This document shows positions 9,795 to 34,295 of a stretch of 64,000 nt of DNA, piece by piece; positions within the stretch are counted from its first letter, which is position 1, and each line of letters opens with the position of its first letter. Below the pieces are notes generated by a model. That model worked only from the letters and a program-made list of their open reading frames with translations, did not search any database and was not told where the DNA came from. Source of the stretch: Candidatus Angelobacter sp. (GTDB taxonomy: Bacteria > Acidobacteriota > Terriglobia > Terriglobales > Acidobacteriaceae); NCBI GenBank assembly GCA_036380095.1, contig DASVFK010000250.1, forward strand, positions 24,125-88,124. Direction: 5' to 3'. The translations under genes were made by a program, and so were the position numbers.

Positions 9795-12266
9795 GTGAGC
9801 AATTTTGGCCAGGACATCCGTTTCGCTCTACGCGCCATGCGCAAGTCGCCGGGGTTTACGGCTGTCGCCGTAATCACGCTTGCCTTGGGCATCGGCGCTA
9901 ACACGGCGATCTTTACCGTGATCAATGCCGTGTTCTTCAATCCCATGCCGGTCAAGGACGCGGGGCGCCTGGTGAACCTCTATACCATCGATCCGGGCGT
10001 ATCGACCCGAGGTTTCACCTACATGCCGCTCTCCCTCCCCAACGGCCAGGACGTCGCCCGCGAGATCAGCGCCTTTTCCGGTGTGGCGATCTACACCGTG
10101 TTCGGCACCGGCGTGAGTATGACCGTCAACGGCCAGCCTGACAGATACAATGCCAGCGCCGTCACCGGAAATTACTTTGATGTGCTGGGCGTTCCCGCGG
10201 CCCTGGGCCGCACCTTTCGTCTTGAAGAAGAGCGTGAAGGCTCCGCGCCCGTTGTGATCCTCAGCCATGGTTTGTGGGAGCGCAAGTTCGGGGCCGATCC
10301 CGGCGTCATCGGGCAGAATGTCCTGCTCAACGGACAAGGCTTCACGGTTATCGGCGTGGCTCCTCGCGGTTTCCAGGGGCCTACCACTCTAGGTGGCCCG
10401 GACATGTGGGTGACCATGGCCATGCATGACCAGATCTTTTCCGGCCTGCAAAAGACGCTGTTCAAGGAGCGCCGGGCTCTATTTTTCTCCGCCATCGCAC
10501 GATTGAAAGATGGCGCGACGCTGGAGCAGGCGCGGCAGCAATTGAAAGTCCTGGGAGCGAACCTGGAACAGGCGTTCCCCGCGGCCAACAAGGGCCGGAC
10601 CTTTGTGGGCATTCCGCTGTTGCAGTCGGTGGTAGGGCCGGATTTTGGGGCAGTGCTCAGTCAAATCGGCGCCGTAATGATGGGTGTGGTGGGTCTGGTG
10701 CTGTTGATCGCGTGCGCCAACATCGCCAACCTGATGCTTTCTCGTGCGGCTTCACGCAAACGCGAGATTTCCATCCGGCTGGCCATGGGCGCCTCGCGCT
10801 CGCGCATCGTGGCGCAATTGCTTACCGAATCGACTGTCCTGGCCGTTGCCGGCGGTTTGCTGGGGCTCGGCTTGGCGGTGGTTGGCCGCAATCTGCTGTG
10901 GAAGTTCCGGCCGCCCTTCCTGGCCAATACCTTTCTCGATCTGCCCCTGGACAGCCACGTGCTCCTGTTTACTCTTGGTATCGCCTTGGCTACCGGCATC
11001 ATCTTTGGGCTGGTGCCGGCCATGCAGTCCTCGCGTCCTGATCTGGTCTCTGAACTCAAGGAGCGCACCGGTACCGAGATGTTTGCCCGGGGCATCTTCA
11101 ACCTGCGCAACATCTTCATCATGGCGCAGGTTGGGCTTTCGCTTGTGGCGTTGATCGGGGCCGGACTGTTCCTGATGAGTTTGCGCAACGCCCAACAAAC
11201 CGATCCCGGCTTCAACACCCACAACCTGGGCATCATCTCCTTCGACGTCGGCTCACTGAACTACGAACCTGCGCGGGTGAAGGAGTTCCAGCGTCGCGTG
11301 CTGGAGGTGATCACCGCTACTCCCGGTGTGCAAGCCGCCACTCTTTCGAGCAGCGTGCCGCTGTTGAACGGCGGTTTCGGTCGCAGCATTTTTCCTGAAG
11401 GCCGCGACCCCAGCGCCAATCGCAACGGCTTGTTCGCCCAAGTTAATAGCGTCTCCCTCGACTATCTGCGCACCATGGGAATTCCGCTGGTAAAAGGGAG
11501 CGACTTTGACAGCTCGGTGCGCGAAGACGGTCCCCGCGTGGTGGTAATCAATGAAACGGCGGCGCACCGTATCTGGCCCAACGACGATCCGATAGGGAAG
11601 CGTTTCAAGTTTTTCGGCGATGACAACTGGGTCCAGGTGATGGGAGTGGCGCGCGACTCCAAGTACAACGCCCTGGGCGAAGACCCCACGCCCTACATGT
11701 ATCTTCCTCTGCTGCAGTATCCCAGCTCCGGAGTAACCGTGTTTTTCCGCACTGGCCCGGAGACGCGCTCCATTCTGGGCGCCTTGCGTACGGAAGTGCA
11801 GGCCATGGACCGCAACCTGCCCCTGACCAACGTGTGGCCGATTGGCGAGGTCTTTTCCCAGGCCTTGTGGGCGCCCCGCTTCGGCGCCGCACTCCTGGCC
11901 ATCTTCGCCATGCTGGCCATGCTGCTCTGCGCCGTAGGAATTTACGGCGTGGTCAGCTATTGGGTAGGCCAGCGAGTGCGCGAAATCGGCGTGCGGCTGG
12001 CCCTGGGCGCGCAGCCTGGCAACGTCCTGCTGATGGTCTTGCGCCAGAGCGCCGTCACCTTGGCCATTGGTTTGGGGGCGGGACTGCTGGTTGCCTACGT
12101 CGCGGCCCGCTTCACTGTGAGCCTTCTCTTCGGCGTGAGTGCGAATGAGCCGGTGGCTTTTCTCTCGATCGCGTTGGGCCTGGCCGCAGTTGGACTCCTG
12201 GCCAGCTATGTCCCGGCGCGCAGAGCGGCCCGGGTGGACCCCATGATCGCTCTGCGCTACGAGTAA
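9795..12266 (+). CDS. ADOP-family duplicated MacB-like ABC permease (second copy)
   Basis: GTG start after GGAG. N-terminus MSNFGQDIRFALRAMRKSPGFTAVAVITLALGIGANTAIF, duplicated permease architecture, C-terminal RVDPMIALRYE. Paralogous to 4429..6903. Confidence 0.85.
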   Translation: MSNFGQDIRFALRAMRKSPGFTAVAVITLALGIGANTAIFTVINAVFFNPMPVKDAGRLVNLYTIDPGVSTRGFTYMPLSLPNGQDVAREISAFSGVAIYTVFGTGVSMTVNGQPDRYNASAVTGNYFDVLGVPAALGRTFRLEEEREGSAPVVILSHGLWERKFGADPGVIGQNVLLNGQGFTVIGVAPRGFQGPTTLGGPDMWVTMAMHDQIFSGLQKTLFKERRALFFSAIARLKDGATLEQARQQLKVLGANLEQAFPAANKGRTFVGIPLLQSVVGPDFGAVLSQIGAVMMGVVGLVLLIACANIANLMLSRAASRKREISIRLAMGASRSRIVAQLLTESTVLAVAGGLLGLGLAVVGRNLLWKFRPPFLANTFLDLPLDSHVLLFTLGIALATGIIFGLVPAMQSSRPDLVSELKERTGTEMFARGIFNLRNIFIMAQVGLSLVALIGAGLFLMSLRNAQQTDPGFNTHNLGIISFDVGSLNYEPARVKEFQRRVLEVITATPGVQAATLSSSVPLLNGGFGRSIFPEGRDPSANRNGLFAQVNSVSLDYLRTMGIPLVKGSDFDSSVREDGPRVVVINETAAHRIWPNDDPIGKRFKFFGDDNWVQVMGVARDSKYNALGEDPTPYMYLPLLQYPSSGVTVFFRTGPETRSILGALRTEVQAMDRNLPLTNVWPIGEVFSQALWAPRFGAALLAIFAMLAMLLCAVGIYGVVSYWVGQRVREIGVRLALGAQPGNVLLMVLRQSAVTLAIGLGAGLLVAYVAARFTVSLLFGVSANEPVAFLSIALGLAAVGLLASYVPARRAARVDPMIALRYE

Positions 12267-12269
12267 CGT

Positions 12270-13118
12270 TTATTGGTACATGACGCGCATCTTGTCTACA
12301 TAGACCTGATACGGCGTCGCCTTGCTGTTGCTATCCAGTTGAAATGCGTTGGAGAACTGGTTGCGCCCGTTGGTGAAAGCGGCGTTGTGCGAAATGTTGA
12401 CCGGGAAGCGCACGCCGTCCACGGTGAGCGCATCGTGCCACACCACGTGGTTGGCGGTGTCGTTGTGATATTCGGCAACGATGTGGTGCCAGGTATTGGG
12501 AGCAAATCCCGTGAAGGGAATGCCGCTCGTGTCCCAGCGCTTCAAGCCGTAGTCGAAGATGCGCCATGTCTTGGTGCCCACGTATTCCGCCTGCCAGGCG
12601 AAGTTGTAGACCCAGCCATTGACGGTCTGCTGGCACTCGAACTCGATCGCCTGCGGAGCGTTCTCCATTCCGGAAGGAACAAAGAGATCGAACTCGTACG
12701 TCAGCGCTGTGATCTGGCCGGTGACCGGCGCGTACTGCCGATAGAAGTAGGCGTTGCTGAATGCCACGGATGCTGCGATGGAGAACTGGGTTGAGCGGCC
12801 GTCTTCACTGGGCGAGGCCATTCCGGGCGTGAATGTATAGGAGGCTACCGCTCCGGTGGCGCCGGTATTGCCGCAAGCGCCACAGGTGAGCCAGTTCGGC
12901 GAATCTTCCACGTTATCGATTACCGTGCTGCTGGGCGTGCCGGGCGCGGGTGCAGGAGATGGCGCCGGCGCAGGTGAAGGAACCGGTGAAGGCGAGGGAT
13001 GGGCAGCGGGTGAGATCGAGTTACTGGCAATGTTGCTTCCGCCGCAACCGGTGATTGTGAAAAACGATGTGAAGACTACGAGCAGGGCAAAAAAAGAAAG
13101 AGCACAACAACTACGCAA
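12270..13118 (-). CDS. hypothetical lipoprotein with Pro/Ser/Ala linker and beta-sandwich-like C-terminal domain
   Basis: TTG start after GGGAGGA. Signal plus lipobox FFTITGCGG and a linker PSPSPVPSPAPAPSPAPAPG. I recognise no family for the remainder. Confidence 0.55.
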   Translation of the reverse strand: MRSCCALSFFALLVVFTSFFTITGCGGSNIASNSISPAAHPSPSPVPSPAPAPSPAPAPGTPSSTVIDNVEDSPNWLTCGACGNTGATGAVASYTFTPGMASPSEDGRSTQFSIAASVAFSNAYFYRQYAPVTGQITALTYEFDLFVPSGMENAPQAIEFECQQTVNGWVYNFAWQAEYVGTKTWRIFDYGLKRWDTSGIPFTGFAPNTWHHIVAEYHNDTANHVVWHDALTVDGVRFPVNISHNAAFTNGRNQFSNAFQLDSNSKATPYQVYVDKMRVMYQ

Positions 13119-13545
13119 AAATGGTTCCTCCCAAGGGTTCGGCCTGGACGCAGTGACGTGTGCGTAACTCTACCGGCGCGGCGGTCGTTTTGGATTACGC
13201 GGGAAACCTGAAGTTAAGGTGACCAAAGTAGCCTGGCCGTTCGGACATCGGTTGAAATACCGGCCCAAAACGCGTGATTTGCGTGCTCGTACAAACCCCG
13301 GTAACTTGTCCTGTTTTCAAATCCTTGGAGAGAATCTTGTTGAGCGTGCGGCTAGGGCGGGCGCGTGGTTTGCCATTGTCCGCAGGGGAGTTTTTCGCTC
13401 AGGCTCAGCTCATGCAGCGCGGAGTCCCTCGCCTTCCTCAAGCTTTCACCCGAGGTCACGGCTAAGGCGTGAAGATCAAAGCGGGATGGGCAGCATCTGC
13501 TGCATAATTGAGGTATTCCGGGAGCCGGCAACAACTTAGGTCGAC

Positions 13546-15183
13546 GTGAGAGCAGGCAACTTGACCCCCAACCCTACCCAATCCACACCCAGACAGCTGT
13601 TGCGCGTGCGTGACTTGTGTGTCGATTATCGCTTTGCATCGGTTAAGGTTGCCGCCTTGCAAAACGTAGATCTGGAACTGGGCGAAGGCGAGAGTCTGGG
13701 CGTGTTGGGAGAATCCGGATCGGGCAAGAGTTCCCTGGCACATGCGTTGCTCCGTCTCTTGCCCTCCGATGCGTCCGTCTCCGGGCTGGTGCAATTCCGG
13801 GAAACGGATTTACTGAACGCCCGCGCGAAGACCTTGCGTGAAATCCGCGGCGCCGGGATTGCTTTGATTTCGCAGGAGCCGGCCCTGGCGCTGAACCCTG
13901 TACTGCCCATTGGGCGGCAGATTGGCGACGTACTTCGCGCCCACGAGTCGGTCAACCGTAGGCAGGAGCGAGATCGCGTGGCCGGTGCGCTGCGCGAAGT
14001 TGGTTTGACCGAGCCTGAGCGTATCATGCGCGCTTATCCTCACCAGCTCAGCGGGGGGCAAAGACAGCGCGCTGCCATTGCTCAGGCGCTGGTGTGCCGG
14101 CCGGCGCTCCTGATTGCCGATGAACCGCTCAGCTCGCTTGACACGGCCACGCAGGCTGAAGTTCTGGAGCTGCTGCGCACCCTGAAAGCGGAACTCAACC
14201 TGGCCATGATCTTCATCTCGCACAACGCTGGAGCGTTCTCCTCTTTGTGTGAGCGCGCGTTGGTGATGCGCAATGGCCGGGCTGTTGCTTGTGCTTCCCT
14301 CGAGGAACTCGCCGAGACCGCTGATCCTTACATCCGTGGATTGCTGTTTCCGGAGGCCGCTTTTTTAGACGGATGCAAGACACCAGCGTCGCAGCCTCAA
14401 GCCGGCCGGCCGCTGCTCGAAGTGCGGAGCGTGAGCAAGAGGTTCATGCAGCGCAGGGCGCTTTCACGCAGCAAGTTTGCTGTCCAGGCCCTGGAGCACA
14501 TCGATCTCAGCGTGGATGAGGGCGCCACGCTCGCGGTCATCGGACGCTCGGGTTCGGGAAAATCCACGCTGGCCCGCTGCATCGCCGGTTTTGAAAGTCC
14601 CGACTCGGGTGAAATCGTGCTAGCAGGCCGCAAGCACGAATCCAGCCCCCAGGTGCAGATGATTTTCCAGGACGTGGGCACGGCGCTGAACCCGCGCTTC
14701 ACTGCCGCAGAGGTGATCAGCGAACCGCTGGACATCGCGCGTAAGAACGATCCTTTGGAGCGCCGCAAGCGCGCCCTGGACCTGATGGAAGAGGTCGGCC
14801 TTGATCCCGACTGGCAGGCCCGCCCCTCGCACCAGTTCAGCGGCGGCCAGCGGCAGCGGCTGGCTCTGGCCCGGGCTTTAGCGGCTGGGCCAAAACTTCT
14901 GGTCCTTGACGAACCCTTTTCCGGACTCGACCTGGCCTTACAGGCGCAGATGTTGCGGCTTCTCCTGGAGGTCCAGGCGCGCCACCGTCTCACCTGCATT
15001 TGGATCGGCCACGATCTTAGCTTCCTTTCTTATTTTGCCCGTGATGTCGTCGTCATGGACCAGGGCCGGGTGGTGGAACACACGGCTCCACAAGGCCTGC
15101 GGAGCAGCACAGTGCCGGCAACGCGTTTGTTGGTGGAAGCCAGCGATCGGCTGCATGCCCCGGGCGTAGAGGCTGTGTCATGA
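13546..15183 (+). CDS. fused double-ATPase subunit of an Opp/Dpp-type (peptide/nickel family) ABC importer
   Basis: Two full ABC cassettes. Walker A motifs GESGSGKSS and GRSGSGKST, signatures LSGGQRQR and FSGGQRQR, Walker B motifs LLIADEP and LLVLDEP. Confidence 0.9.
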   Translation: MRAGNLTPNPTQSTPRQLLRVRDLCVDYRFASVKVAALQNVDLELGEGESLGVLGESGSGKSSLAHALLRLLPSDASVSGLVQFRETDLLNARAKTLREIRGAGIALISQEPALALNPVLPIGRQIGDVLRAHESVNRRQERDRVAGALREVGLTEPERIMRAYPHQLSGGQRQRAAIAQALVCRPALLIADEPLSSLDTATQAEVLELLRTLKAELNLAMIFISHNAGAFSSLCERALVMRNGRAVACASLEELAETADPYIRGLLFPEAAFLDGCKTPASQPQAGRPLLEVRSVSKRFMQRRALSRSKFAVQALEHIDLSVDEGATLAVIGRSGSGKSTLARCIAGFESPDSGEIVLAGRKHESSPQVQMIFQDVGTALNPRFTAAEVISEPLDIARKNDPLERRKRALDLMEEVGLDPDWQARPSHQFSGGQRQRLALARALAAGPKLLVLDEPFSGLDLALQAQMLRLLLEVQARHRLTCIWIGHDLSFLSYFARDVVVMDQGRVVEHTAPQGLRSSTVPATRLLVEASDRLHAPGVEAVS

Positions 15184-16136
15184 TTCGCTACTTCGGGCGC
15201 AGGCTGTTTCACGCCGTGCTGGTCTTGTTCGGCGTTTCGCTGCTGATGTTCCTCGTGCAGCAGGCCGCACCCGGAGATTTTCTGAGTGAAATGAGGTTGA
15301 ACCCCCAGATTTCCCCGCAAGCGTTGCACACCTTGCGGGCGCAATACGGCCTGGATCAGCCGCTGCCCCTGCGCTATGCGCACTGGCTCAGCTTTGTGGC
15401 CAGAGGTGAATTCGGGTATTCCTTTGCTTACGACATGCCTGCTTCCAAACTCCTGTGGCCGCGCGCGCGGAACACTCTGCTGCTCACTGTGCCGGCCCTT
15501 CTTATCTCCTGGCTGATCGCGGTGCCTTTGGGCGTACTGGCCGCGGCACAGCGTGGGACCTGGCTGGGCCGGCTGTTCTCCGGCGGAACATCTTTTCTGC
15601 TGGCTGTGCCGGACGTCTTGCTTGCTTTGCTGGCGTTGATGATCGCCTTGCGCACCGGACTGTTTCCAGTGGGCGGAATGAGGTCCGCAGACCCGTCTCA
15701 CGGGCGGCTGGCAGACCTGGCGTGGCACATGGTCTTGCCCGTCGGCACACTGGTGCTCGGATCATTGCCTGTCATTTTGCGTCACGTACGCGCCGCCGTC
15801 TCCGAAACGCTCAGTTCTTGTTATGTGCGCGCGGCTGAAGGCCATGGGTTGCGTCAGTTGCCGCTCTTGTTCCGGCACGCGTTGCCTGCGGCCGCCAATC
15901 CGCTGATTTCCTTGTTCGGCATTTCCATTGCTTTCCTTCTGAGCGTCTCGCTCCTGGTGGAGACGGTGATGAGCTGGCCGGGAATGGGGCCGCTTTTGTT
16001 GGAGTCGATCCTGGCTCGCGATCTATTTGTGGTGCTCGGGGCCACCATGCTCTCCACGTTGTTCCCGCTGGCGGGGAACTTGATCGCGGACGTCCTGCTG
16101 TATGGTTTCGACCCGCGTATCAGGATGGAACCATGA
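15180..16136 (+). CDS. ABC transporter permease (OppB/DppB-like)
   Basis: ATGA overlap with the ATPase stop. N-terminus MIRYFGRRLFHAVLVLFGVSLLMF is typical of OppB/DppB. Multiple TM helices. Confidence 0.85.
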   Translation: MIRYFGRRLFHAVLVLFGVSLLMFLVQQAAPGDFLSEMRLNPQISPQALHTLRAQYGLDQPLPLRYAHWLSFVARGEFGYSFAYDMPASKLLWPRARNTLLLTVPALLISWLIAVPLGVLAAAQRGTWLGRLFSGGTSFLLAVPDVLLALLALMIALRTGLFPVGGMRSADPSHGRLADLAWHMVLPVGTLVLGSLPVILRHVRAAVSETLSSCYVRAAEGHGLRQLPLLFRHALPAAANPLISLFGISIAFLLSVSLLVETVMSWPGMGPLLLESILARDLFVVLGATMLSTLFPLAGNLIADVLLYGFDPRIRMEP

Positions 16137-17161
16137 GACAACGTCACGTATTTTCCTGGGCGGCGTGGTTCCTCGTGACGGTCAATGCCGCCGCGCTTCT
16201 GGCCGGGTTCGTCGCTCCCTACAACTACGAAACGCAGGACCGGCTACGTCCTTATGCGCCTCCCACGCGTCTCCACTTGGTGGATTGTGAAGGCAAGTTT
16301 CACTTCTGGCCATTCGTGTATATGACCAGGCCCGGCGGGGAGAGTCTCACGGAGTACCAAGAAGACTGTGGCCAGCGGTTTCCGGTTCGTTTCTTTCTGA
16401 GCGGCGACGGTTATACCGTGCTGGGATTGTTTTCGGGGCACCGCCATCTTTTTGGAGTTGATCTGCCCGCGCGCATGTACCTGTTGGGAGGAGATGGCCT
16501 GGGGCGCGACCAGTTTTCCCGCATGCTCTATGGCGCGCAGGTGTCCTTGTTTGCCGGCGCGCTGGCGGCCTTGCTCGCCATGATGGGGGGACTGCTGGTT
16601 GGTTCCATCGCCGGCGTTTACGGCGGGGCAATTGACGACTTATGCATGCGCGTTACCGAGGTCATTATCGCAGTCCCGCCATTTTATGTTTTGCTCGCCG
16701 TACGGGCGTTTCTGCCGCTGCAAGTGAGCGCACCGGTCATGTTCCTGGAGATCGTGGCTGTGCTTGGTTTCGTGGCCTGGGGACGCCCCGCGCGGCTGGT
16801 GCGAGGCGTTGTTTTGGGCGCGCGCGAACGCAGCTTTGTTCTGGCGGCGCAGGGATTCGGCGCGTCGCGGGCGTATCTGCTGCGACGTCACCTGATGCCT
16901 TTGGCCATGAACGCGGCGCTTACGCAGATGGCTGTTTCCATTCCCCAAATCATTCTTGGGGAAGTGGTCATCTCCTTCCTGGGGCTGGGCATGAGCGAGC
17001 CCGTTCCCAGTTGGGGCAACATGCTGGCCCAGGCGCAGCAATACCACGTGCTGACGGCACATTGGTGGATGCTGCTTCCGGCGCTGGCCCTGGTTCCAGT
17101 GACCCTGGCGTACCAGGCCTTGGCCGATGTTCTAGGTTCACGCTTGCAATCTCGAATTTGA
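16133..17161 (+). CDS. ABC transporter permease (OppC/DppC-like)
   Basis: ATGA overlap with the preceding permease. It has the long periplasmic N-terminal loop typical of OppC, followed by BPD_transp_1-like helices (LGGDGLGRDQFSRMLYGAQVSL). Confidence 0.85.
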   Translation: MRQRHVFSWAAWFLVTVNAAALLAGFVAPYNYETQDRLRPYAPPTRLHLVDCEGKFHFWPFVYMTRPGGESLTEYQEDCGQRFPVRFFLSGDGYTVLGLFSGHRHLFGVDLPARMYLLGGDGLGRDQFSRMLYGAQVSLFAGALAALLAMMGGLLVGSIAGVYGGAIDDLCMRVTEVIIAVPPFYVLLAVRAFLPLQVSAPVMFLEIVAVLGFVAWGRPARLVRGVVLGARERSFVLAAQGFGASRAYLLRRHLMPLAMNAALTQMAVSIPQIILGEVVISFLGLGMSEPVPSWGNMLAQAQQYHVLTAHWWMLLPALALVPVTLAYQALADVLGSRLQSRI

Positions 17162-17176
17162 GCCGATGGGAGAAGC

Positions 17177-18934
17177 ATGACGACTTTCAAATACTCGCGT
17201 TTTGTTTCGGTCCTAGCCCTCCTGGTTGGTTGCTTGAGCCTTCCGGGATTCGGCGGGTTGGCTCCGCAAGAGGAGCTTCTGACCACCACGGCGGAACCGG
17301 GACGGCCGGGAGGACGTTTGGCTATCGGGGAGCCGTTCGAGCCCAAGACCTTGAACCCGCTCAACGCGGTGGACCAACCGTCGCTCGATGTCATCCGCCG
17401 CACCATGGCTGATTTGATCCATATCAACCGGGCCACGCTGAAAGCGGAGCCGGCACTGGCCAAGTCGTGGACGGCCACTCCCGACGGCAAGACCCTTACC
17501 TTGCAGCTTCGCCGCGGGATCCGTTTTTCGGATGGAGCTCCGTTTGACGCCGATGACGTAGTCTTCTCCTTCCAGGTCTATCTCGATGAGAAAGTGGCCG
17601 CGCCACAACGCGTTTTGTTGCTGATCGATGACAAGCCGATCAAGGTGGAAAAACTCGGGCAATACACGGTGCGGTTTTCGTTTTCCGCGCCTTACGCCGT
17701 GGGAGAAAGGGTCTTTGACAGCGTGCCCGTCCTGCCCCGCCATCTTTTGGAGAAGGAGTACCAGGAGGGCCGCATCAAGCAGGTATGGACGCTCAGCGCT
17801 TCGCCGGCCAGCATGGCGGGCCTGGGACCTTTCCGGCTGAAATCAGTCGCCCCCGGCGAGCGAGTCGTGCTGGAGCGTAATCCTTACTATTGGAAAGTGG
17901 ACAGCAAGGGCCAGCGGCTTCCTTACCTCGATGAATTGAGTTTCGTCATGGTGCCCAATACGGAAGCCCAGGTGATTCGATTCATGGCTGGCGACATTCA
18001 GGCAATCAGTCCCTTGAGCGCCGATGGCTACGCCTCCCTGGCTCCCGACCAGCAGAAACATCACTACAAACTGTACGACATGGGCGCGGGACTGGAATTC
18101 AATTTCCTATTTTTCAATCTCAATGAAGACACGGAAGGCCGGTTGCCGGAGGTCGCGCGCAAGCAAGCCTGGTTCAGAGACGTACGCTTTCGCCAGGCGG
18201 TCTCGCGCGCCATCGACCGGCAGGCGATCGCCCGGCTGGCATACCACAACCGGGCCACACCGCTGGTAACCCATGTGACGCCGGGAGACAAGCTGTGGTT
18301 CGATTCCTCCCTCGCTGCGCCCTCGCAATCGCTGCCGGAAGCGCGGCGGCTCTTGCAGCAAGCCGGCTTTTCCTGGAAGCCGGACGGGGCGCTGGTTGAC
18401 TCCCATGGCACGCGCGTGAGTTTCAGCATTCTGGCCAACTCGGGCAACGCCCAGCAGACGCAAAGCGCAACCTTGATCCAAAGCGACCTAAGCAAGCTGG
18501 GGATGGACGTGCACGTTGTTACGCTGGAGTTCCGTGCCACCGTGGACCGCATCCTGCAGTCCCATGATTACGACGTCGCCGTGATGCGCATGGCCAATGG
18601 TGACGCCGATCCCAATCCCGTGATGGGCATTCTCACCTCGGAGGGCTCCACGCATGTGTGGAGCATGGGGGAAAAGAAACCGCCCCAGTGGCAGTTGGAA
18701 ATCGACCGCCTGATGCAGCAGCAGATGATCACGCTGGACTTTCGCAAGCGCAAGAAACTCTATGATCAAGTGCAGCAGATCCTGGCGCGCGAAGTCCCGG
18801 CCCTTTTTCTGGTGAGCCCCAATATCCTGGTGGCGGCCCGGGAAAATCTCGCCAATGTGCGTCCCGCTATAATGGACAACTACATTCTGTGGAATTCAGA
18901 CGAACTGTTTTGGCGCACCCCCGCCGGAAAATAA
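17177..18934 (+). CDS. ABC transporter substrate-binding protein, family 5 (peptide/nickel)
   Basis: Signal peptide or lipoprotein-like N-terminus. Size of 585 aa and motifs (LNPLNAVDQPS..., ERNPYYW) are typical of SBP_bac_5. It is the last gene of the transporter block. Confidence 0.85.
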   Translation: MTTFKYSRFVSVLALLVGCLSLPGFGGLAPQEELLTTTAEPGRPGGRLAIGEPFEPKTLNPLNAVDQPSLDVIRRTMADLIHINRATLKAEPALAKSWTATPDGKTLTLQLRRGIRFSDGAPFDADDVVFSFQVYLDEKVAAPQRVLLLIDDKPIKVEKLGQYTVRFSFSAPYAVGERVFDSVPVLPRHLLEKEYQEGRIKQVWTLSASPASMAGLGPFRLKSVAPGERVVLERNPYYWKVDSKGQRLPYLDELSFVMVPNTEAQVIRFMAGDIQAISPLSADGYASLAPDQQKHHYKLYDMGAGLEFNFLFFNLNEDTEGRLPEVARKQAWFRDVRFRQAVSRAIDRQAIARLAYHNRATPLVTHVTPGDKLWFDSSLAAPSQSLPEARRLLQQAGFSWKPDGALVDSHGTRVSFSILANSGNAQQTQSATLIQSDLSKLGMDVHVVTLEFRATVDRILQSHDYDVAVMRMANGDADPNPVMGILTSEGSTHVWSMGEKKPPQWQLEIDRLMQQQMITLDFRKRKKLYDQVQQILAREVPALFLVSPNILVAARENLANVRPAIMDNYILWNSDELFWRTPAGK

Positions 18935-18941
18935 AAAGTGA

Positions 18942-19538
18942 ATGGACGACAACGCCAAGAGCATTACTTTGCCAGCGCCAAAGGAAATTGAGGCCGAAGA
19001 CGAAAGGCTGGTCCAGGATTGCCTGAAAGGGGACGAAAAGGCATGGAACCGCCTGATCGACAAATACAAGCGGTTGATCTATTCGGTCCCGGTCAAATAC
19101 GGCGTTGCTCCGGAAGACGCAGCCGACATCTTTCAGAACGTCTGTGTCGACCTGTTCACCAACCTTTCCAAGCTGAGAAAAATTGAGTCGCTGCGGTCCT
19201 GGCTCATTACCGTGGCCACGCACAAGTGTTTCCATCACAAAAGGCAGCAGCGGCAGGACGTTGAACTGGACGCGATGGAGCAGGAAGTGGCGGAAGATCT
19301 GGCGCCGGCGGCCGAGACGGTGCTCCACGAAGTGCAGGAAGAGCAGGCCATACGCGACGCCCTGGCGCGGCTCACGCCTCGCTGTGCGGAACTGGTGAAG
19401 ATGCTGTTCTATGAACAGCCGCCGGTGCCCTATACCGAAGTTGCCCAGAGACTCGGCCTGGCCACCGGGTCCATCGGATTCATCCGCGGGCGATGTCTCA
19501 ACCGGCTGCAAAAGATTCTGGCGGAGCTGGGGTTCTAG
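18942..19538 (+). CDS. ECF-type sigma-70 family RNA polymerase sigma factor
   Basis: Region 2 (RLIYSVPVKYGVAPEDAADIFQNVCVDLF) and a region 4 HTH (YTEVAQRLGLATGSIGFIRGRCLNRL). It starts 7 nt after the SBP stop. Confidence 0.85.
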   Translation: MDDNAKSITLPAPKEIEAEDERLVQDCLKGDEKAWNRLIDKYKRLIYSVPVKYGVAPEDAADIFQNVCVDLFTNLSKLRKIESLRSWLITVATHKCFHHKRQQRQDVELDAMEQEVAEDLAPAAETVLHEVQEEQAIRDALARLTPRCAELVKMLFYEQPPVPYTEVAQRLGLATGSIGFIRGRCLNRLQKILAELGF

Positions 19539-22397
19539 ATGTCGCAGGTTGGTACATTTGCGCCGGAACCGTGGATTTCCGAACTCTCGGCAATTAGCGA
19601 AGAGCAGGGACGCCGGGAGTTCTTGTCACGCCAGGCCCACCGCCAAAGCGAAAAATCGCTGCAGGCGCTGCTGGATGGCGTGGCCACGTTTGCCCGCTTC
19701 GATGTGCCCAAGGCAGAGCGCCTGTCCCAGGCCCTGGCTTGGATCGCCACAGAAAGCGGCGACCCCTATGCTCTGGCGCAAAGCCGGCGGGCCTCTGGTC
19801 ATGTGCATTACCTCAACGGCAGATACCGGCAGGGAATCGAGGAGTACGAAAAGGCCATCCAGGAATTGGACCGTTTGGGGCGTCACGTGGAGGCCGCGAG
19901 CACGATCAGCGCCGCCCTCATATGCTTGATCTACGACGGGCAGTACGACCGCGCCTATCAGCTCGGCAAAAAGGCCCGCGAGGCGTTCCAGGCGGCTGGG
20001 GACCGACACCGCCTGGCCAGGCTTGATAGCAACCTGGCCAACGTCTATTACCGACAAGACCGCTTTCAGGAGGCGGGCGCGCTGTTTGAGCGCGCCTATA
20101 GCGAACTTCTTGAAGTGGGAGACCCACTGGACATCGCGGTGGTCCTGCGCAATATGGCGGTCTGCTACATCAGCCTGAACGAGTTTGCGCAAGCGCAGGA
20201 AACCTATCAGTTGGCCCGCCAGCACTCGGAAAGACATGGTTTTTCCCAACTGGTCGCCGAATCCGATTACAACATCGCCTACCTGCACTATCTGCGCGGC
20301 GAATACTTGCGCGCCATCGAGATGTACGACCAGACGCGGGTGCGCTGTAAGCAGCTCGGCGACAAGTACCACCAGGCCCTGTGTGACCTTGACCAGTCGG
20401 AGATTTATCTGGAGTTGAACCTGACTGAGGGGGGCATCGAACTGGCGCAAGATGCTTTTGCCGCTTTCAGCGACCTGGGGATGCGCTATGAGGCGGCCAA
20501 AGCGGCCACGTTCTCCGCCATCGCGGTCAGCCAGCAGGGGCATTATCGCCAGGCCCTGCAGATTTTCGACCGTGCCCGGGAGCTGTTTATCAATGAGCAG
20601 AACCAGCTCTGGCCGGCGCTGATCGATCTCTACAAGGCACTGGTGCTTTACGAAGCCGGCGACAATGACTCGGCGGAAGACCTTGCTTTGTCCGCCCTGG
20701 AATACTTCGCTCCCTCTTACCTGCCGGCCAAAGCCGCTTTATGCGAACTGTTGCTGGCTGCCATCGAATTGCGCAGCTCCGATGCCGACGAGGCGCGGCG
20801 ATACTGCAGCTCCGCCCTGGCCCGCTTGCTGCACATCGAGTCCCCTGCCACCTACCAGGCGTATTTCATGCTGGGCCAGGCCGAGGAAGCCAGCCGTAAC
20901 ACTGAGCTGGCGCGCCAGGCCTATGAGAAGGCCTATCAGAAGCTGGAGGACCTGCGCAGCCACCTGGGCAAGGAAGAGCTGAAGATCGCGTTTCTCAAGA
21001 ACAAACTCACGGTTTATGAAAGCCTTGTCCTAACATCGCTGGCGGTCCATTCGCGCACCTGCACGGAGCACGATACGTTCCAGTACATCGAACAGGCAAA
21101 ATCACGCAGCCTGGCTGACCTGATTGCCTTCCGTGCGTCTTCGCTCAACGCCAGGAACCTTGAGCATGCTCCCGCCATGGCCCAGTTTCGCGAGCTGCGC
21201 CAGAAACTGAACTGGACCTACCATGAAATCGAATTGCAGGAATTGGGCCAGGAAGGCGGTTCGCAGGACCGCATCCGGCAATTGCGCCTGCAAAGCCGGG
21301 AGTACGAAGACGCTCTGGTCAAGTCCTTCTCCCAATTGCAGAGCGTTGACTATGAGCTCGCCAGCCTGCAAAGCGCCAGCACCGTCTCTGCGCGCGAGCT
21401 GCAAAAGATTCTGCCTCCTGACTCGATGCTGGTGGAGTATTACGTTGCCCGTGACCGGTTCTACGTTTGCCTAGTCTCCCGAGACCGCCTCAAGGTACTG
21501 CCGGTGGCGGACGCCGTCCCGGTACGGGAAAAGCTTCGACTTCTGCAATTGCAGTTGGCGAAATTCCGCCTGGGAGACGAGTACATCCGGCCGCTGGAGA
21601 AGCGCTTGTTGCAGGCGACGCGGGCGCACCTTGAGGAACTCTACGAGTTGCTGATCGCCCCCATCCGTGGGCAGCTCGAGGCCCATCACCTCATCATTGT
21701 GCCCCACACGTTTCTGCACTACCTGCCCTTCCATGCCCTGTCTGACGGAAAACGGCATCTGATTGACGATTTTTCCATCTCCTACGCACCCAGCGGGAGC
21801 ATTTTTGCCGCGTGCCAAGGCAAGGAACATGCCAGCCAGAGCGGCTTGGTGCTGGCCATCCCGGACGCCCGTGCTCCATACATTGAAGAGGAAGGTCGGC
21901 TGGTGGCAGACGCCATGGGCGGGGCAAGTTTGTTCCTGGGTGAGGATGCTACCGAGGAACGCTTGCGCAGCCTGGGACCGCAGAGCCGGTTCATCCACAT
22001 TGCCACGCATGGATATTTTCGTGAGGACAATCCCATGTTCTCTTCCATTCGGCTGGGGAATTCTCTTCTGAGCCTATTTGACCTGTATCAGTTACAGCTA
22101 AACGCTGAGCTGGTGACCTTGAGCGGTTGTGGCACGGGAATGAATGTTGTGGTGGGCGGCGATGAACTGATCGGCCTGGTGCGGGGTTTGCTCTATGCTG
22201 GGGCGCAAACCCTGATGGTGAGCTTGTGGGAGGTGCACGATCAGAGTACGGCCGAGTTCATGCGCGATTTCTATACCTTGTATGGTGGAGTCCAGAACAA
22301 GGCGGAAGCCCTTCGCCAGGCTGCGCTCAGACTGCGCGAAACCCACCCACATCCGTATTATTGGGCGGCCTTCGCCCTGGTTGGGAAGTTTATGTAA
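19539..22397 (+). CDS. TPR-repeat CHAT-domain (caspase-like peptidase) protein
   Basis: Its ATG directly abuts the sigma-factor TAG (TAGATG). The N-terminal two-thirds is TPR-like. The C-terminal CHAT domain has the His/Cys dyad context FIHIATHGYF ... LVTLSGCGTG. Confidence 0.85.
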   Translation: MSQVGTFAPEPWISELSAISEEQGRREFLSRQAHRQSEKSLQALLDGVATFARFDVPKAERLSQALAWIATESGDPYALAQSRRASGHVHYLNGRYRQGIEEYEKAIQELDRLGRHVEAASTISAALICLIYDGQYDRAYQLGKKAREAFQAAGDRHRLARLDSNLANVYYRQDRFQEAGALFERAYSELLEVGDPLDIAVVLRNMAVCYISLNEFAQAQETYQLARQHSERHGFSQLVAESDYNIAYLHYLRGEYLRAIEMYDQTRVRCKQLGDKYHQALCDLDQSEIYLELNLTEGGIELAQDAFAAFSDLGMRYEAAKAATFSAIAVSQQGHYRQALQIFDRARELFINEQNQLWPALIDLYKALVLYEAGDNDSAEDLALSALEYFAPSYLPAKAALCELLLAAIELRSSDADEARRYCSSALARLLHIESPATYQAYFMLGQAEEASRNTELARQAYEKAYQKLEDLRSHLGKEELKIAFLKNKLTVYESLVLTSLAVHSRTCTEHDTFQYIEQAKSRSLADLIAFRASSLNARNLEHAPAMAQFRELRQKLNWTYHEIELQELGQEGGSQDRIRQLRLQSREYEDALVKSFSQLQSVDYELASLQSASTVSARELQKILPPDSMLVEYYVARDRFYVCLVSRDRLKVLPVADAVPVREKLRLLQLQLAKFRLGDEYIRPLEKRLLQATRAHLEELYELLIAPIRGQLEAHHLIIVPHTFLHYLPFHALSDGKRHLIDDFSISYAPSGSIFAACQGKEHASQSGLVLAIPDARAPYIEEEGRLVADAMGGASLFLGEDATEERLRSLGPQSRFIHIATHGYFREDNPMFSSIRLGNSLLSLFDLYQLQLNAELVTLSGCGTGMNVVVGGDELIGLVRGLLYAGAQTLMVSLWEVHDQSTAEFMRDFYTLYGGVQNKAEALRQAALRLRETHPHPYYWAAFALVGKFM

Positions 22398-22401
22398 AGA
22401 T

Positions 22402-22412
22402 TTGTAAATATT
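22402..22412 (+). promoter_or_regulatory. AT-rich motif TTGTAAATATT (copy 1), upstream of the anti-sigma-like gene
   Basis: The identical 11-mer recurs at 24792..24802 upstream of the second S8 peptidase. Both lie in AT-rich islands within GC-rich DNA. Function not established. Confidence 0.3.
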
Positions 22413-22549
22413 AGAGCAGGTATATTTTTTACCCTGGTTCTGACTCTTTATGTACAGAAGCAGGCTCATCCGTCGACTGCTAAAGAGGGGAGCATGGACC
22501 CGGAAGCCGTGTTCCCCTCGTAAACAAAAGAGACGAAGAAAAACGATTT

Positions 22550-23185
22550 ATGCCTCAAGCCGCGCGCCATTTCGACATTACCGAGTGGGCTGATTATGCC
22601 AGGAAGACGGCATCTCCCGAGCAGCAAAGCGAGATGGCGTCTCACCTGAAGGCTGGATGCCCGAAGTGCGAAAAGATCGAGCAATTATTGACGAAATTCA
22701 TTGCAGTCTGCGCGCGTGAGAGCGCGTATGAATTACCTCGACACGCAGAGCGGTCAGTGAAGGCGCTGGCGGGTCTGGGAAAACCCGAGCGTCGCTCGAC
22801 GTTCGAGCGGCTGTGGGGCACCTTGATATTTGATAGCTCGAATGCCCCGCTGCCGGTGGGTGTCCGCGGATCTCATCAAATCAGCCGGCATGTGCTGTTT
22901 CATGCGGGCGATTACTCCGTTGATCTGCGATTTGAGCATGAAAGAGGTTCGGCCAGTATGGTGCTCGTGGGACAGATTGCCAACCAGAAGTCGCCCGAAG
23001 AGGCGATGTGCAATCTGCCAGTGATCCTGCTGGCGGGTGAGCGGGAAGTGTCGCGCTCCATTAGCAATTCCTACGGAGAGTTCCAGATGGAATATGTTCC
23101 GGACAGCGATCTGCGCCTGTTGGTTCCCCTTGAGTCAACCGGCCAGGAGCTCGAGGTATTGCTGGGCAAGACGCCGCAAGCCTGA
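22550..23185 (+). CDS. soluble anti-sigma-factor-like protein (zf-HC2-like N-terminus, beta-sandwich C-terminus)
   Basis: The N-terminal HLKAGCPKCEKIEQL resembles the H-x3-C-x2-C anti-sigma zinc motif, with one extra residue. There is no TM helix. The C-terminal part resembles carboxypeptidase-regulatory-like folds (GEFQMEYVPDSDLRLLV). Confidence 0.45.
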   Translation: MPQAARHFDITEWADYARKTASPEQQSEMASHLKAGCPKCEKIEQLLTKFIAVCARESAYELPRHAERSVKALAGLGKPERRSTFERLWGTLIFDSSNAPLPVGVRGSHQISRHVLFHAGDYSVDLRFEHERGSASMVLVGQIANQKSPEEAMCNLPVILLAGEREVSRSISNSYGEFQMEYVPDSDLRLLVPLESTGQELEVLLGKTPQA

Positions 23186-23224
23186 TTTTTGTAGGGGCCA
23201 ATTTGAACAACTGAGACGTCGACT

Positions 23225-24637
23225 ATGAGGACACTGCGTCTGCTGTGCATTACCGGTCTTGTGTTTGCGCTCGGCCTGCCTGTGGCCGCGCAGAGCACTT
23301 TTGTTCTAACCGTTGCGCCCGCTAATGCCCAGACGGTCCTCACCAGCCACGGTCTTACTGTCATCAAAGAGATCCATGATGGCGCAAACTGCGTCTATCT
23401 GGTACGTTCCGCTTCCGCCGATGTAGCCAGCGTTGAAACGGAAGTTGAAAAAGACCTCTTGGTCGCCGGCTTTGAGCCCGAGCAAAGTATTGGTCTGCCG
23501 GAGCTCAGTGGGGCCACTCAGTCAAATCTTACGCAAGCCACCGCTACGGTCACGGGCACCCTGCCCGGGCGTACGCTGGTCACCTTCTTCGGAAGCACAG
23601 TTCCCAGCAATTACACCAGCCAGGCGGCCACCAGCATCGTTCGCTTGGATGATGCCCGCAACGCTACTCATCTCACGGGCGCGGGGACGGTGGCGATCAT
23701 CGATACCGGGGCAGATCCGAACCATCCAGCGTTGGCTGGCGTTTTCGTAGGCGGATACGACTTTACCCGCGACACAATTGGATTTTCAGAGCTTGCGGAC
23801 CTGGATCCAAACACGGCCGCTGCTCTGCAGCAGTCGATTTCGCCTATCCTTGGCTCGCAGAACGTTTACATTCTTAATCCATACACTGCCGCCATCCTGG
23901 ACCAGTCGATCTCGCCCATCCTGGGACAATCGATTTCGCCGATTCTCGGCGGCACCGGTGATTTTGGCCACGGCACCATGGTGGCAGGCGTGGTCCACCT
24001 GGTAGCGCCCACCGCCAAGATCATGCCCTTGAAGGCATTTCGCGCCGATGGAACATCGAATCTTTCCGATATCATTAACGCCGTCTATTACGCTGCGGAC
24101 AACGGGGCCAACGTCATCAGCATGAGCTTCAGCATGCCGCAGTCTTCCCCTGGGCTTCAGACTGCGATCCAGTACGCCCTCAACAAGAACATTGCCGTTG
24201 TCGCCGCCTCCGGCAATGACGGGCAGAAGACCCTGGTTTTCCCGGCAAGCTACGGCGGCGTGCAGGGAATCGGCTCCACGGACTCCAACGACGCGAGAAG
24301 CACGTTCTCCAATTACGGCTCTGGCGTGACGGCTTTTGCGGCCCCGGGCGAAGCCGTAATTACCACTTTCCCAGGCGGCTATTACGCCGCAGGCTGGGGT
24401 ACTTCCTTCAGCGCTCCCATGTTCGCCGGCGCAGCTTCCCTCGTGCTCCAGGCACGTCCATTGAGCAAGCCGGGAGATGTAACCAACGCTCTTTCAAAGA
24501 CCAAGCAGGTAAGCGATATGGGTTATGGCCGCATTGACCTCTACCAGTCGCTTACGAACTTGTTTAGTGGCAGCACGAGCACCAGCGGTGGCAGCGGGAC
24601 CAGCGGCAGCAATACCAGCGGCTCCTCCAAACCATAA
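23225..24637 (+). CDS. secreted S8 family serine peptidase (subtilase) with I9-like propeptide
   Basis: Signal peptide. Catalytic contexts VAIIDTGAD (Asp), GHGTMVAG (His), ASGNDG (Asn) and GTSFSAPMFAG (Ser). Three QSISPILG repeats lie between Asp and His. Gly/Ser/Thr-rich tail. Confidence 0.9.
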   Translation: MRTLRLLCITGLVFALGLPVAAQSTFVLTVAPANAQTVLTSHGLTVIKEIHDGANCVYLVRSASADVASVETEVEKDLLVAGFEPEQSIGLPELSGATQSNLTQATATVTGTLPGRTLVTFFGSTVPSNYTSQAATSIVRLDDARNATHLTGAGTVAIIDTGADPNHPALAGVFVGGYDFTRDTIGFSELADLDPNTAAALQQSISPILGSQNVYILNPYTAAILDQSISPILGQSISPILGGTGDFGHGTMVAGVVHLVAPTAKIMPLKAFRADGTSNLSDIINAVYYAADNGANVISMSFSMPQSSPGLQTAIQYALNKNIAVVAASGNDGQKTLVFPASYGGVQGIGSTDSNDARSTFSNYGSGVTAFAAPGEAVITTFPGGYYAAGWGTSFSAPMFAGAASLVLQARPLSKPGDVTNALSKTKQVSDMGYGRIDLYQSLTNLFSGSTSTSGGSGTSGSNTSGSSKP

Positions 24638-24642
24638 TCCCG

Positions 24643-24668
24643 TCAAGGATTCGGCCTTGGTTTTTTTA
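24643..24668 (+). terminator. rho-independent terminator (TCAAGG-ATTCGG-CCTTGG + T7)
   Basis: Short GC stem followed by TTTTTTT, starting 6 nt after the S8 stop codon. Confidence 0.6.
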
Positions 24669-24791
24669 TTAAGCCCTCTTAATCCTTGCACCTCTTAATC
24701 TGCCAAGAAATGAACTTCAGACCAACGAATGTTGCACGAAACCTTCGCCCTGTGAGCACCTGCCCAGCTTGCCTTTGTCTGATTTAAGTTA

Positions 24792-24802: not shown

Positions 24803-25008
24803 GTATTTATATATGAATCAGGGGATTCATCCCTGGGCTTAAGGATGGTCCGGGATGAGTCCAACCGTTAGCTTGAATAAATTTGCTCTAACAAAAGCGT
24901 ATTTCTCGTGGCTATACTGACCACCTATTATTCAGCAACACTGACTTTCGCAACGAAATACGAGGAGCCAGGTGTCGTCGACGGAAACGACCACCCGGAG
25001 TTGGAGAG

Positions 25009-33825: not shown

Positions 33826-34295
33826 GTGACCGGCACTTCATATACGAAAGCAATAATCAGGATGCGAGTGCGGTGCCGCGCACTTTCAATCTTCAATCTC
33901 AACTGAGGTTGGTGGCGGTTGCGTAACTCGCAGATTCCTTCACCAGCCCTGAACCCGGGTGCGATACAGATGTAGGTTGCACGTATCGGCGGCACACCCG
34001 GCCCGCGGCAGTCCACGGAACAGAGAGCGCTTTCGGACCCAGCTTGGCGATTCGCCAGGCATATACACCTCTTTGTCCCAAAACTGCCACGAACTTCGCA
34101 GCCCAGGCCCTTAGTCGACCGAACCCAGGATTTTCCAGATTCAGGACTTTGTCCACGACCTGCTTTGTTCAGACGAGCAAATGTGCGCGTGATTGACGTG
34201 AAGAGAAATACGGATGAGAGAGATTGCGGGCCCGGGAACCCGGAATCTCAAACGCGACATTCTCGAATCTTGCAAAAAGGACGGAAACTTTCGAA

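Follow-up and report, generated by a model that had tools for sequence, protein, structure and literature searches.

What signal does a sigma factor of the extracytoplasmic function (ECF) type obey when its gene lies between a peptide importer and a caspase-like protease? The question is raised by a locus in the window analysed here, a stretch of 64,000 nt from Candidatus Angelobacter sp. (GenBank assembly GCA_036380095.1, contig DASVFK010000250.1, positions 24,125 to 88,124 of the forward strand; coordinates given below are those of the window). The first-pass annotation of this DNA had described six genes, four for an Opp/Dpp-type importer followed by the sigma factor and a tetratricopeptide repeat (TPR)-CHAT protein, and had placed the TPR-CHAT protein where an anti-sigma factor would normally be encoded. 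The cluster is a nine-gene module and not a six-gene one. It consists of the four importer genes, the gene for the sigma factor (18942-19538, + strand, 198 aa), that for the TPR-CHAT protease (19539-22397, + strand, 952 aa), a gene whose 211-aa product is very probably a soluble anti-sigma factor of the zinc-binding anti-sigma (ZAS) type (22550-23185, + strand), and two genes for secreted S8 subtilases, S8a (23225-24637, + strand) and S8b (25009-26343, + strand). The subtilases carry a repeated octapeptide with which the TPR region appears to co-diversify among related genomes. A possible answer to the question, in which we have rather less than even confidence, is that acidobacteria of Candidatus Angelobacter/Terriglobia run a previously undescribed "pherotyped" peptide circuit, the subtilases being both precursor and processing enzyme.

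The sigma gene encodes an ECF (group IV) sigma-70 factor. The protein matched Sigma70_r2 (E 3e-11), Sigma70_r4 (E 1e-4; 22.0 bits against a gathering score of 24.1) and TIGR02937 (84.4 bits against a cutoff of 42.9), and it has no region 3. Its relatives number in the thousands, the closest being 78-94% identical and bearing source names such as Candidatus Angelobacter, Terriglobia and Acidobacteriia. The protein encoded directly 3' of it has a TPR region (TPR_12) at about residues 61-480 (nt 19719-20978) and a CHAT domain (PF12770, E 2.6e-65) at residues 696-950 (nt 21624-22388). Its His/Cys dyad is intact, as had been read at first pass, with H824 in ATHG (nt 22008-22010) and C864 in SGCG (nt 22128-22130). 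The TPR-CHAT protein is placed in the cytoplasm because it has neither a signal peptide nor a transmembrane segment. Related loci, numbered with the prefix L, were collected in a one-genome-per-species scan (69 loci) and a metagenome scan (80 more), and gene order was determined by tblastn with the window proteins.

The claim that the TPR-CHAT protein takes the place of an anti-sigma factor is not supported, since the probable anti-sigma gene is present one gene further on. The 211-aa protein was recognized through profiles. Searched alone against Pfam and NCBIfam it returned nothing even at E <= 10, and a PDB search with a profile of its close homologues (A1) returned noise only. A further profile (A3) was made from a family alignment to which remote homologues had been added, found in Chloroflexota, in Armatimonadota and at other loci of Acidobacteriota. 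Against the PDB, A3 matched RsiW (5wuq_C, E 4.8e-5 over residues 1-73), RslA (3hug_B, E 3.7e-4) and, weakly, DdvA (8rlz_A, E 0.022); the anti-sigma match was seen with A3 only, because the distant homologues from other phyla had been added. The C-terminal half is a CarboxypepD_reg-like beta-sandwich (4v4c_B, E 4e-5). Among 11 family members, Pfam reported zf-HC2 in 4 and CarboxypepD_reg in 6, the zf-HC2 matches being limited to distant members at 20.5-20.8 bits against a threshold of 22.2.

The classical ZAS zinc motif is H/C-x(23-26)-H-x3-C-x2-C. In close homologues of the 211-aa protein H7, W13, H32, C37 and C40 are invariant; A3 keeps H32, C37 and C40 without exception and has either His or Cys at position 7, bar a one-residue offset in L068; and in 51 diverse representatives (<=50% identity) the ligands H7, H32, C37 and C40 are near-invariant. 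The pattern H/C7-H32-C37-C40 resembles the zinc-ligand pattern of ZAS anti-sigma domains, but its spacing in the window protein is H-x4-C-x2-C; the classical H-x3-C-x2-C is found in L067 and L069. An AlphaFold2 (AF2) model with a mean predicted local distance difference test (pLDDT) score of 70 places helices at residues 10-17, 23-34 and 38-59 (pLDDT 86-89), a low-confidence linker at residues 93-112 and a beta-sandwich at residues 114-205. Foldseek with the AF2 model returned generic beta-sandwiches only (superoxide dismutase, macroglobulin and usher domains) and no anti-sigma match, because the small helical domain was outweighed. The protein has no hydrophobic or transmembrane segment and is therefore taken to be soluble. 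Nearly all family members are 200-235 aa long, and an exhaustive profile search, counted in clusters at 50% identity, gave 2,023 at E <= 1e-3 and 1,045 at E <= 1e-10. D95, G104 and R106 of the predicted disordered linker are near-invariant among the 51 representatives, and so are G141-Q142 and G176-E177-F178 of the sandwich core. A motif L-x-[FY]-D-S-x3-P-x2-[AV]-G-[VLM]-R (residues 95-106, nt 22832-22867) is likewise near-invariant in the linker of these representatives.

With a probable anti-sigma gene in the module, the likely target of the CHAT domain is the anti-sigma factor and not the sigma factor. Proteolytic control of the sigma factor, as first proposed, is kept in this altered form: it is still the most plausible role for the TPR-CHAT protein, with the target moved to the inhibitor.

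The module is conserved well beyond the window. At loci with a sigma factor at least 50% identical to that of the window, the CHAT gene lay directly 3' of sigma in 77/77, an anti-sigma gene within 4.5 kb in 75/77, an S8 gene within 7 kb in 68/68, and a gene for the solute-binding protein (SBP) of the importer, ending <200 nt 5' of sigma, in 72/72. Both exceptions for the anti-sigma gene (L059, 7780-9246, and the corresponding region of L060) have a gene for a sigma-54-dependent NtrC-like response regulator inserted between CHAT and anti-sigma. Below 50% sigma identity the SBP linkage was found in 0/8, a set that includes two to three unrelated or doubtful ECF matches (L071-L073, 27-34%). The distant importer-linked loci, down to 51% sigma identity, came from metagenome-assembled genomes (MAGs) labelled Bryobacteraceae, Acidiferrales and Dormibacterota. 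The distance from SBP to sigma was -1 to 29 nt in about 50 loci with sigma identity >=78%, and did not exceed about 60 nt where the sigma factor was more distant. The sigma-CHAT junction reads TAGATG, TAATG or TGATG almost everywhere, the two genes abutting or overlapping in about 55 species-level genomes, and they are translationally coupled. Junctions this short across so many loci indicate that the packing is not due to chance. Transporter, sigma factor and TPR-CHAT protease are one tightly packed, evolutionarily conserved unit, and the linkage from importer through sigma to CHAT that had been noticed in the window is kept in its relatives. The suggested tie between the sigma factor and peptide uptake looks functional.

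Outside the importer-linked set the gene order differs. It is sigma, anti-sigma, CHAT, S8 in L064 and L066 (Anaerolineae) and in L069 (another acidobacterial lineage); of two loci from Chthonomonadales, L068 ends after the anti-sigma gene and L070 has CHAT and S8 divergent from sigma. The anti-sigma gene is at position +1 after sigma in L064, L066, L068 and L069, and the ABC transporter is absent from the distant loci. The order in these loci, without an importer, points to an ancient core of sigma factor, ZAS anti-sigma factor, TPR-CHAT protease and subtilase. The core module spans Acidobacteriota, Chloroflexota and Armatimonadota, and the importer was added only in Acidobacteriota; it is a later, lineage-specific addition, which has stayed firmly attached in front of the sigma gene. 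No paper describing a module of sigma factor, anti-sigma factor, TPR-CHAT protease, subtilase and importer was found in the literature.

The two subtilases (S8a, Peptidase_S8 E 8e-36; S8b, a mycosin-like S8 match) both have Sec-type signal peptides and share the octapeptide QSISPILG. S8a has three copies (nt 23831-23854, 23903-23926 and 23927-23950), located in an insertion, about 55 aa in length, between the catalytic residues Asp and His, and S8b has two (nt 25312-25335 and 25609-25632). One copy follows an N-terminal pro-like region (PELSG...LTQSxxxILxxLPGR) and the rest lie between the catalytic Asp and His. In related genomes (L001-L063 and L074-L153) the arrangement is alike and the octapeptide is different, with at least 20 variants, among them QSTTTILD, QSTATILD, QSTSGILD, QSSTSILD, QSNTSILD, QSTAGILE, QSTSTVLE, QSTEGILD, QSTGAILD and QSTGVIID; the nearest relatives of the window have QSMSPILT. 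Across 111 loci the mean was 6.1 identical copies per locus, near-variant copies amounted to 0.045 per locus, and the copies differed by 5.6 synonymous nt per 24 nt, 99% of them being distinct at the DNA level. Identity of the peptides despite divergent codons is therefore kept up by selection on the peptide and not by recent gene conversion. The subtilase of L059 has 16 copies, most of them in tandem between the pro-region and the catalytic domain; they lie at 10456-10983, with an additional one at 11296 inside the Asp-His insertion. This array has the layout of a multi-copy peptide precursor. Insertion and repeats are both absent from the S8 proteins of the transporter-less loci L064, L066 and L070, and the genomes with importer linkage are those with the octapeptide insertion. 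No paper on the octapeptide motif turned up in a literature search.

Covariation between the octapeptide and the TPR-CHAT protein was measured on disjoint nearest-neighbour genome pairs, to limit phylogenetic non-independence; the CHAT domain within that protein served as the internal clock. The median ratio of TPR distance (residues 61-480) to CHAT distance (residues 691-952) was 0.68 in pairs with the same peptide (n=23) and 1.19 in pairs with different peptides (n=14; Mann-Whitney p = 2.2e-5), and p was 1e-4 to 3e-4 in divergence-matched subsets. The excess is located at residues ~91-370, with a roughly threefold peak at residues 181-280. Controls against the same reference were negative for the sigma factor (p 0.37), the anti-sigma N domain (0.23), the anti-sigma C domain (0.13) and a permease (0.06). 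The two largest classes, QSSTSILD and QSTTSILD, are one residue apart. They are told apart by 27 columns of the CHAT protein, of which 22 are in the TPR region (residues 160, 171, 182, 193, 211 and 217 included) and one is in the CHAT domain. Between the window and its nearest relative L074 (QSISPILG/QSMSPILT) there are 0.18-0.28 differences per site at residues 61-240 and 0.126 in the CHAT domain. Co-diversification of the TPR region with the octapeptide is thus supported statistically. Exchange of a contiguous recombination cassette was considered and ruled out: TPR and S8 are separated by the CHAT domain and the anti-sigma gene, neither of which has a signal, so a swapped cassette does not explain the pattern.

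The circuit that we propose would run as follows. The secreted subtilases would process themselves and, outside the cell, set free the octapeptide (here QSISPILG), which the SBP lipoprotein and the ABC transporter would re-import. The octapeptide would then bind the TPR superhelix of the TPR-CHAT protein, in the way that imported peptides bind RRNPP receptors, and the CHAT domain of the peptide-bound protein would be activated and cut the anti-sigma factor in its conserved disordered linker (D95...G104-x-R106), where the motif from D95 to R106 is a candidate protease recognition or cleavage site. The leftover anti-sigma domain would be degraded, freeing the ECF sigma factor to transcribe its regulon, which probably includes the module itself. 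Cleavage of the anti-sigma factor by CHAT seems to us slightly the better bet. The input from peptide to TPR is put forward tentatively, at just under an even chance, and the mechanism taken whole, from peptide release and import through TPR and CHAT to the anti-sigma factor, is a serious possibility that we would stop a little short of calling probable.

Several observations weigh against this circuit. A promoter search found no ECF-type motif (GGAAC-N16-CGTC-like) and no 7-mer common to the three upstream regions. The first octapeptide copy in S8a of the window is degenerate; the last residue of the octapeptide varies (D/E/G/T), so that no single simple cleavage rule fits; and a subtilase is not usually cut between its catalytic Asp and His. 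The SBP, through which the peptide would pass, gave a weak covariation trend (p 0.03-0.08), and the covariation test, made on 37 genome pairs, could retain phylogenetic structure. ZAS domains are known redox sensors (PMC11506125) and can respond to redox without any protease. Finally, the cleavage site, the release of the peptide and its import are steps that we infer from sequence.

A rival explanation is a nutritional regulon, in which the subtilases digest protein, the importer takes up oligopeptides as food, the repeats are autoprocessing or structural elements, and the sigma/anti-sigma pair with an accessory TPR-CHAT protein answers another cue, for instance redox at the zinc site, a sense already known from ZAS domains. 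Secreted S8 proteases and an Opp/Dpp-type importer are classic protein-scavenging partners, a gene for an M28 peptidase follows in the window and one for an amidase in relatives, and one repeat copy is found where a propeptide junction is expected. We consider this explanation unlikely, though with a real chance of being right, as it leaves unexplained why the copies are identical within a genome and different between genomes despite divergent codons, why a cytoplasmic TPR region co-diverges with a motif in secreted enzymes, and why L059 has a tandem array of 16 copies. The first-pass annotation had offered another explanation, with the TPR-CHAT protein itself as the regulator, binding or degrading the sigma factor in place of an anti-sigma factor. 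The sigma stop codon does abut or overlap the CHAT start in essentially all loci, suggesting stoichiometric co-production, and control by a protease without an anti-sigma factor has been proposed for the group ECF54 (PMC8999054). This is nevertheless improbable given a ZAS-type anti-sigma gene in the module (at +1 in the distant relatives), and the two TPR-CHAT/ECF systems that have been characterised have a protease that targets the sigma inhibitor, or forms part of it, and not one that targets sigma (PMC11506125, PMC10028731).

Whether the transporter belongs to the system at all can also be questioned, since the core module exists without it in Chloroflexota, Armatimonadota and another acidobacterial lineage; transporter and sigma module might be neighbours by descent only and be used independently. 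Inherited synteny of this kind is quite improbable against an SBP gene within 200 nt of sigma in 72/72 loci of 51 to 94% sigma identity, core-clade gaps of -1 to 29 nt with no terminator, and a transporter linkage that coincides exactly with the octapeptide insertion in S8. An anti-phage or abortive-infection system of the Craspase/CHAT-protease type was suggested by the nearest solved CHAT domains, which are Csx29 chains (E ~1e-5), and by the fact that both experimentally studied systems of TPR-CHAT with an ECF sigma factor are defence-related (PMC11506125, PMC10028731). The NCBIfam Csx29 model matched the TPR-CHAT protein at E 2.7e-14, but with a score of 53 against a cutoff of 300. No cas genes (Cas7-11, Csx30, Csx31) were found within 10 kb in the window or its relatives, and PADLOC gave no defence-system match for the sigma factor, CHAT or the anti-sigma factor. 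Throughout the relatives the module is stably flanked by housekeeping genes (MacB-like permease, ArgRS, RsgA), and it is vertically conserved at a fixed chromosomal position, unlike defence islands. The defence reading was rejected on the PADLOC result and the housekeeping context, and we regard it as highly improbable.

The four genes at the front of the module, all on the + strand, encode the importer. The first is for a fused double ABC ATPase of the YejF/GsiA/Opp-Dpp type (13546-15183; Pfam PF00005 twice, E 7.5e-60), for which the best NCBIfam matches were YejF, NikE, DppF and GsiA, all under equivalog cutoffs. It is followed by an OppB/DppB-like permease (15180-16136; BPD_transp_1 and BPD_transp_1_N), an OppC/DppC-like permease (16133-17161; BPD_transp_1 and OppC_N) and the SBP, a family-5 lipoprotein of the peptide/nickel/opine class (17177-18934; SBP_bac_5, E 4e-83) with an N-terminal hydrophobic segment and a lipobox LVGC at residues 16-19. 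One predicted operon thus encodes a family-5 SBP, two BPD_transp_1 permeases and two nucleotide-binding domains, the composition of an Opp/Dpp (PepT-family) importer; its NCBIfam equivalog scores, which would point to a substrate, were all below cutoff. The identities given earlier to the importer, the ECF sigma factor and the TPR-CHAT protein are supported throughout by Pfam and NCBIfam, and the list of open reading frames (ORFs) reproduces exactly the coordinates of the six + strand ORFs, packed head to tail. Direct reading of the sequence agrees with the junctions as first described: ATGA overlaps (cATGAtt at 15180-15183 and cATGAga at 16133-16136), a 15-nt gap before the SBP gene, a 7-nt gap between SBP and sigma (TAAaaagtgaATG, TAA-aaagtga-ATG) and a zero gap between sigma and CHAT (TAGATG). 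No terminator had been seen between transporter and sigma gene, and a consensus scan of the + strand from 16545 to 23726 likewise found no terminator-like site; a terminator-like hairpin with a T-run was found 3' of S8a (24642-24669, + strand) by consensus scan and sequence reading. In L025, L029, L032 and L036-L053 the SBP-sigma spacer holds an insert of 25-29 nt with repeated CCGGAA(A/G).

For the transporter-sigma-CHAT unit, the candidate promoter is a -10-like box, CATAAT (13503-13508, + strand), within TGCTGCATAAT about 40 nt 5' of the ATPase start. In 34 aligned regions 5' of the ATPase gene, GCATAAT/CATAATG was present in 68-74% of loci and GTAACTT (13302-13308) in 82%. The 430-nt spacer in which these lie (13119-13545) also has the conserved blocks GTAACTTG, CCTGAGAT and GGATTAC. 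On its other side is a gene for a conserved 282-aa protein without a Pfam family (12270-13118, - strand), divergent from the transporter in all Candidatus Angelobacter loci.

The 152-nt spacer between CHAT and the anti-sigma gene is more conserved than coding DNA. It has a -10-like box, TATATTTTT (22421-22429, + strand), which 98% of 46 aligned intergenic regions contain. The box is unchanged in nearly all loci whose sigma identity is >=51%, is degenerate as TATATCTAG in L061, and has a single exact occurrence within the window; it is a candidate promoter of the anti-sigma and S8 genes. Downstream of it is a structured RNA leader (22459-22518, + strand) of two hairpins. Hairpin 1 (22459-22481) has an invariant 21-nt core, GCAGGCTCATCCGTCGACTGC (22460-22480), identical in 47/74 records, and hairpin 2 (22486-22518) has the invariant loop GACCCGGAAGC. 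In hairpin 2 seven base pairs show compensatory changes, with many G.U pairs, which argues for an RNA structure on the + strand. The folding z-score is -3.5, Rfam had no match for 22459-22518, and a covariance model found one leader per locus wherever the anti-sigma protein was >=58% identical. This is likely a new cis-regulatory RNA leader. That the spacer encodes a small ORF (MDPEAVFP...) was rejected, as indels break the frame between genomes and the base pairs covary.

Further motifs were seen upstream of the subtilase genes. The region 5' of S8b (24905-24990, and the S8a-S8b spacers of L016-L050) has a conserved -10-like CTCTGGCTATACT (TATACT box), after which the S8b leader motif TCGACGGAT, the reverse complement of the hairpin-1 loop, is found. 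In most relatives GTTCGACGGAT, which in reverse complement is exactly the hairpin-1 loop (ATCCGTCGA), comes about 10 nt after the box; in the window the TCGACGG core alone, corresponding to part of that loop, is kept, about 60 nt downstream of the box. CGTCGAC also occurs just 5' of the S8a start (23217-23223). The complement of the hairpin-1 loop could serve as a shared DNA operator or in RNA-RNA pairing. Taken with the boxes, the shared motif suggests that the anti-sigma and S8 genes probably have promoters of their own and a regulatory motif in common.

The module is flanked by ordinary chromosomal genes, for MacB-like permeases and an AMP-binding enzyme on the 5' side and for the M28 peptidase, RsgA and an acyl-CoA dehydrogenase on the 3' side; in relatives the amidase and ArgRS genes stand 3' of the module in place of the window's downstream genes. 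Further downstream in the window there are three + strand ORFs of about 1,050 aa (34224-37472, 38281-41439 and 43913-47053) without a Pfam match at E <= 1e-5.

Few signalling families of bacteria are larger than the ECF sigma factors, with many groups lacking a known input or regulator, and for one such group the locus offers a wiring diagram that is complete and can be tested. Where an anti-sigma factor was believed to be absent from a group, a soluble one may have gone unrecognised; the probable anti-sigma family of the window comprises at least 2,000 clusters at 50% identity. The octapeptide would be a candidate small-peptide activator of a bacterial caspase-like protease, potentially a programmable protease switch, and the logic that leads from TPR-CHAT to a sigma inhibitor, seen in the Craspase and DdvA systems, would be extended beyond phage defence. 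If the proposed circuit is true, a ligand-gated caspase-type protease acts as a quorum- or kin-sensing receptor, and this is the first peptide communication system with specificity types to be proposed for Acidobacteriota. Bacteria of this phylum abound in soil and are difficult to cultivate, and to our knowledge essentially nothing is known of their social behaviour.

In information flow, the proposed circuit is the same as that of the RRNPP systems (Rap/NprR/PlcR/PrgX with Opp). There, processing of a secreted precursor takes place extracellularly, subtilisin-type proteases doing part of it in Bacillus; an Opp-type ABC transporter then brings the short peptide back in, where it is bound by a cytoplasmic TPR receptor, peptide and receptor co-diversifying into specificity types. 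The likeness is one of layout. Where the output of those systems is an HTH or phosphatase domain, that of the window would be a CHAT protease directed at an anti-sigma factor; its peptides are multi-copy and lie inside the processing proteases; and the organisms are Acidobacteriota, not Firmicutes. Release of the sigma factor may be compared with that from class I anti-sigma factors under regulated proteolysis (RseA/DegS/RseP and RsiW), which keep the ECF sigma factor bound as long as no signal-activated protease has made a first cut. The profile of the window anti-sigma factor matches the anti-sigma domains of RsiW and RslA, but the protein has no transmembrane segment, there are no site-1 or site-2 membrane proteases, and the candidate site-1 protease is cytoplasmic and caspase-like.

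Two systems have already joined a TPR-CHAT protein to an ECF sigma factor. DdvA of Myxococcus xanthus has a CHCC/ZAS zinc three-helix anti-sigma domain, a transmembrane helix and a periplasmic TPR-CHAT part in one polypeptide (PMC11506125). As in DdvA-DdvS, the ECF sigma factor of the window would be under a zinc ZAS domain functionally joined to a TPR-CHAT protein; the active site of DdvA is incomplete and periplasmic, whereas the window dyad is intact and the two activities are on separate soluble cytoplasmic proteins, so any signal must reach the cytoplasm. In Craspase (type III-E CRISPR), the TPR-CHAT protein Csx29 cleaves Csx30, an inhibitor of the ECF-type CASP-sigma (PMC10028731). The window shares with Craspase a cytoplasmic TPR-CHAT protein, with its His/Cys dyad, beside an ECF sigma factor and a soluble inhibitor, and in Craspase a cut between the two domains of the inhibitor relieves inhibition. 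It differs in having no Cas7-11, crRNA, Csx30 or Csx31, so that the activating signal cannot be a target RNA; in an inhibitor of ZAS domain plus beta-sandwich, unrelated to Csx30; and in a much longer TPR region (~420 aa), with an importer and secreted subtilases attached.

Similar in gene content is ECF54 of Actinobacteria, a group whose neighbourhoods are reported to contain proteins with CHAT, subtilase and carboxypeptidase-type domains (Huang 2015 and Casas-Pastor 2021, as summarised in PMC8999054) and for which proteolytic control without an anti-sigma factor has been proposed (PMC8999054; also PMC7826278). Compared with the published description of ECF54, the window has the same CHAT/subtilase/carboxypeptidase-type triad, with CHAT at +1 after sigma, a protein at +2 that has the CarboxypepD_reg-like domain, and the two S8 proteins at +3 and +4. 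ECF54 is described as restricted to Actinobacteria and as having no anti-sigma factor, whereas the window and its relatives are MAGs of Acidobacteriota/Terriglobia with a ZAS anti-sigma factor very probably present. The carboxypeptidase-regulatory-like domain of the window locus is the C-terminus of that anti-sigma factor and, because the domain triad is the same, the anti-sigma factor "missing" from ECF54 may be its CarboxypepD_reg-domain protein.

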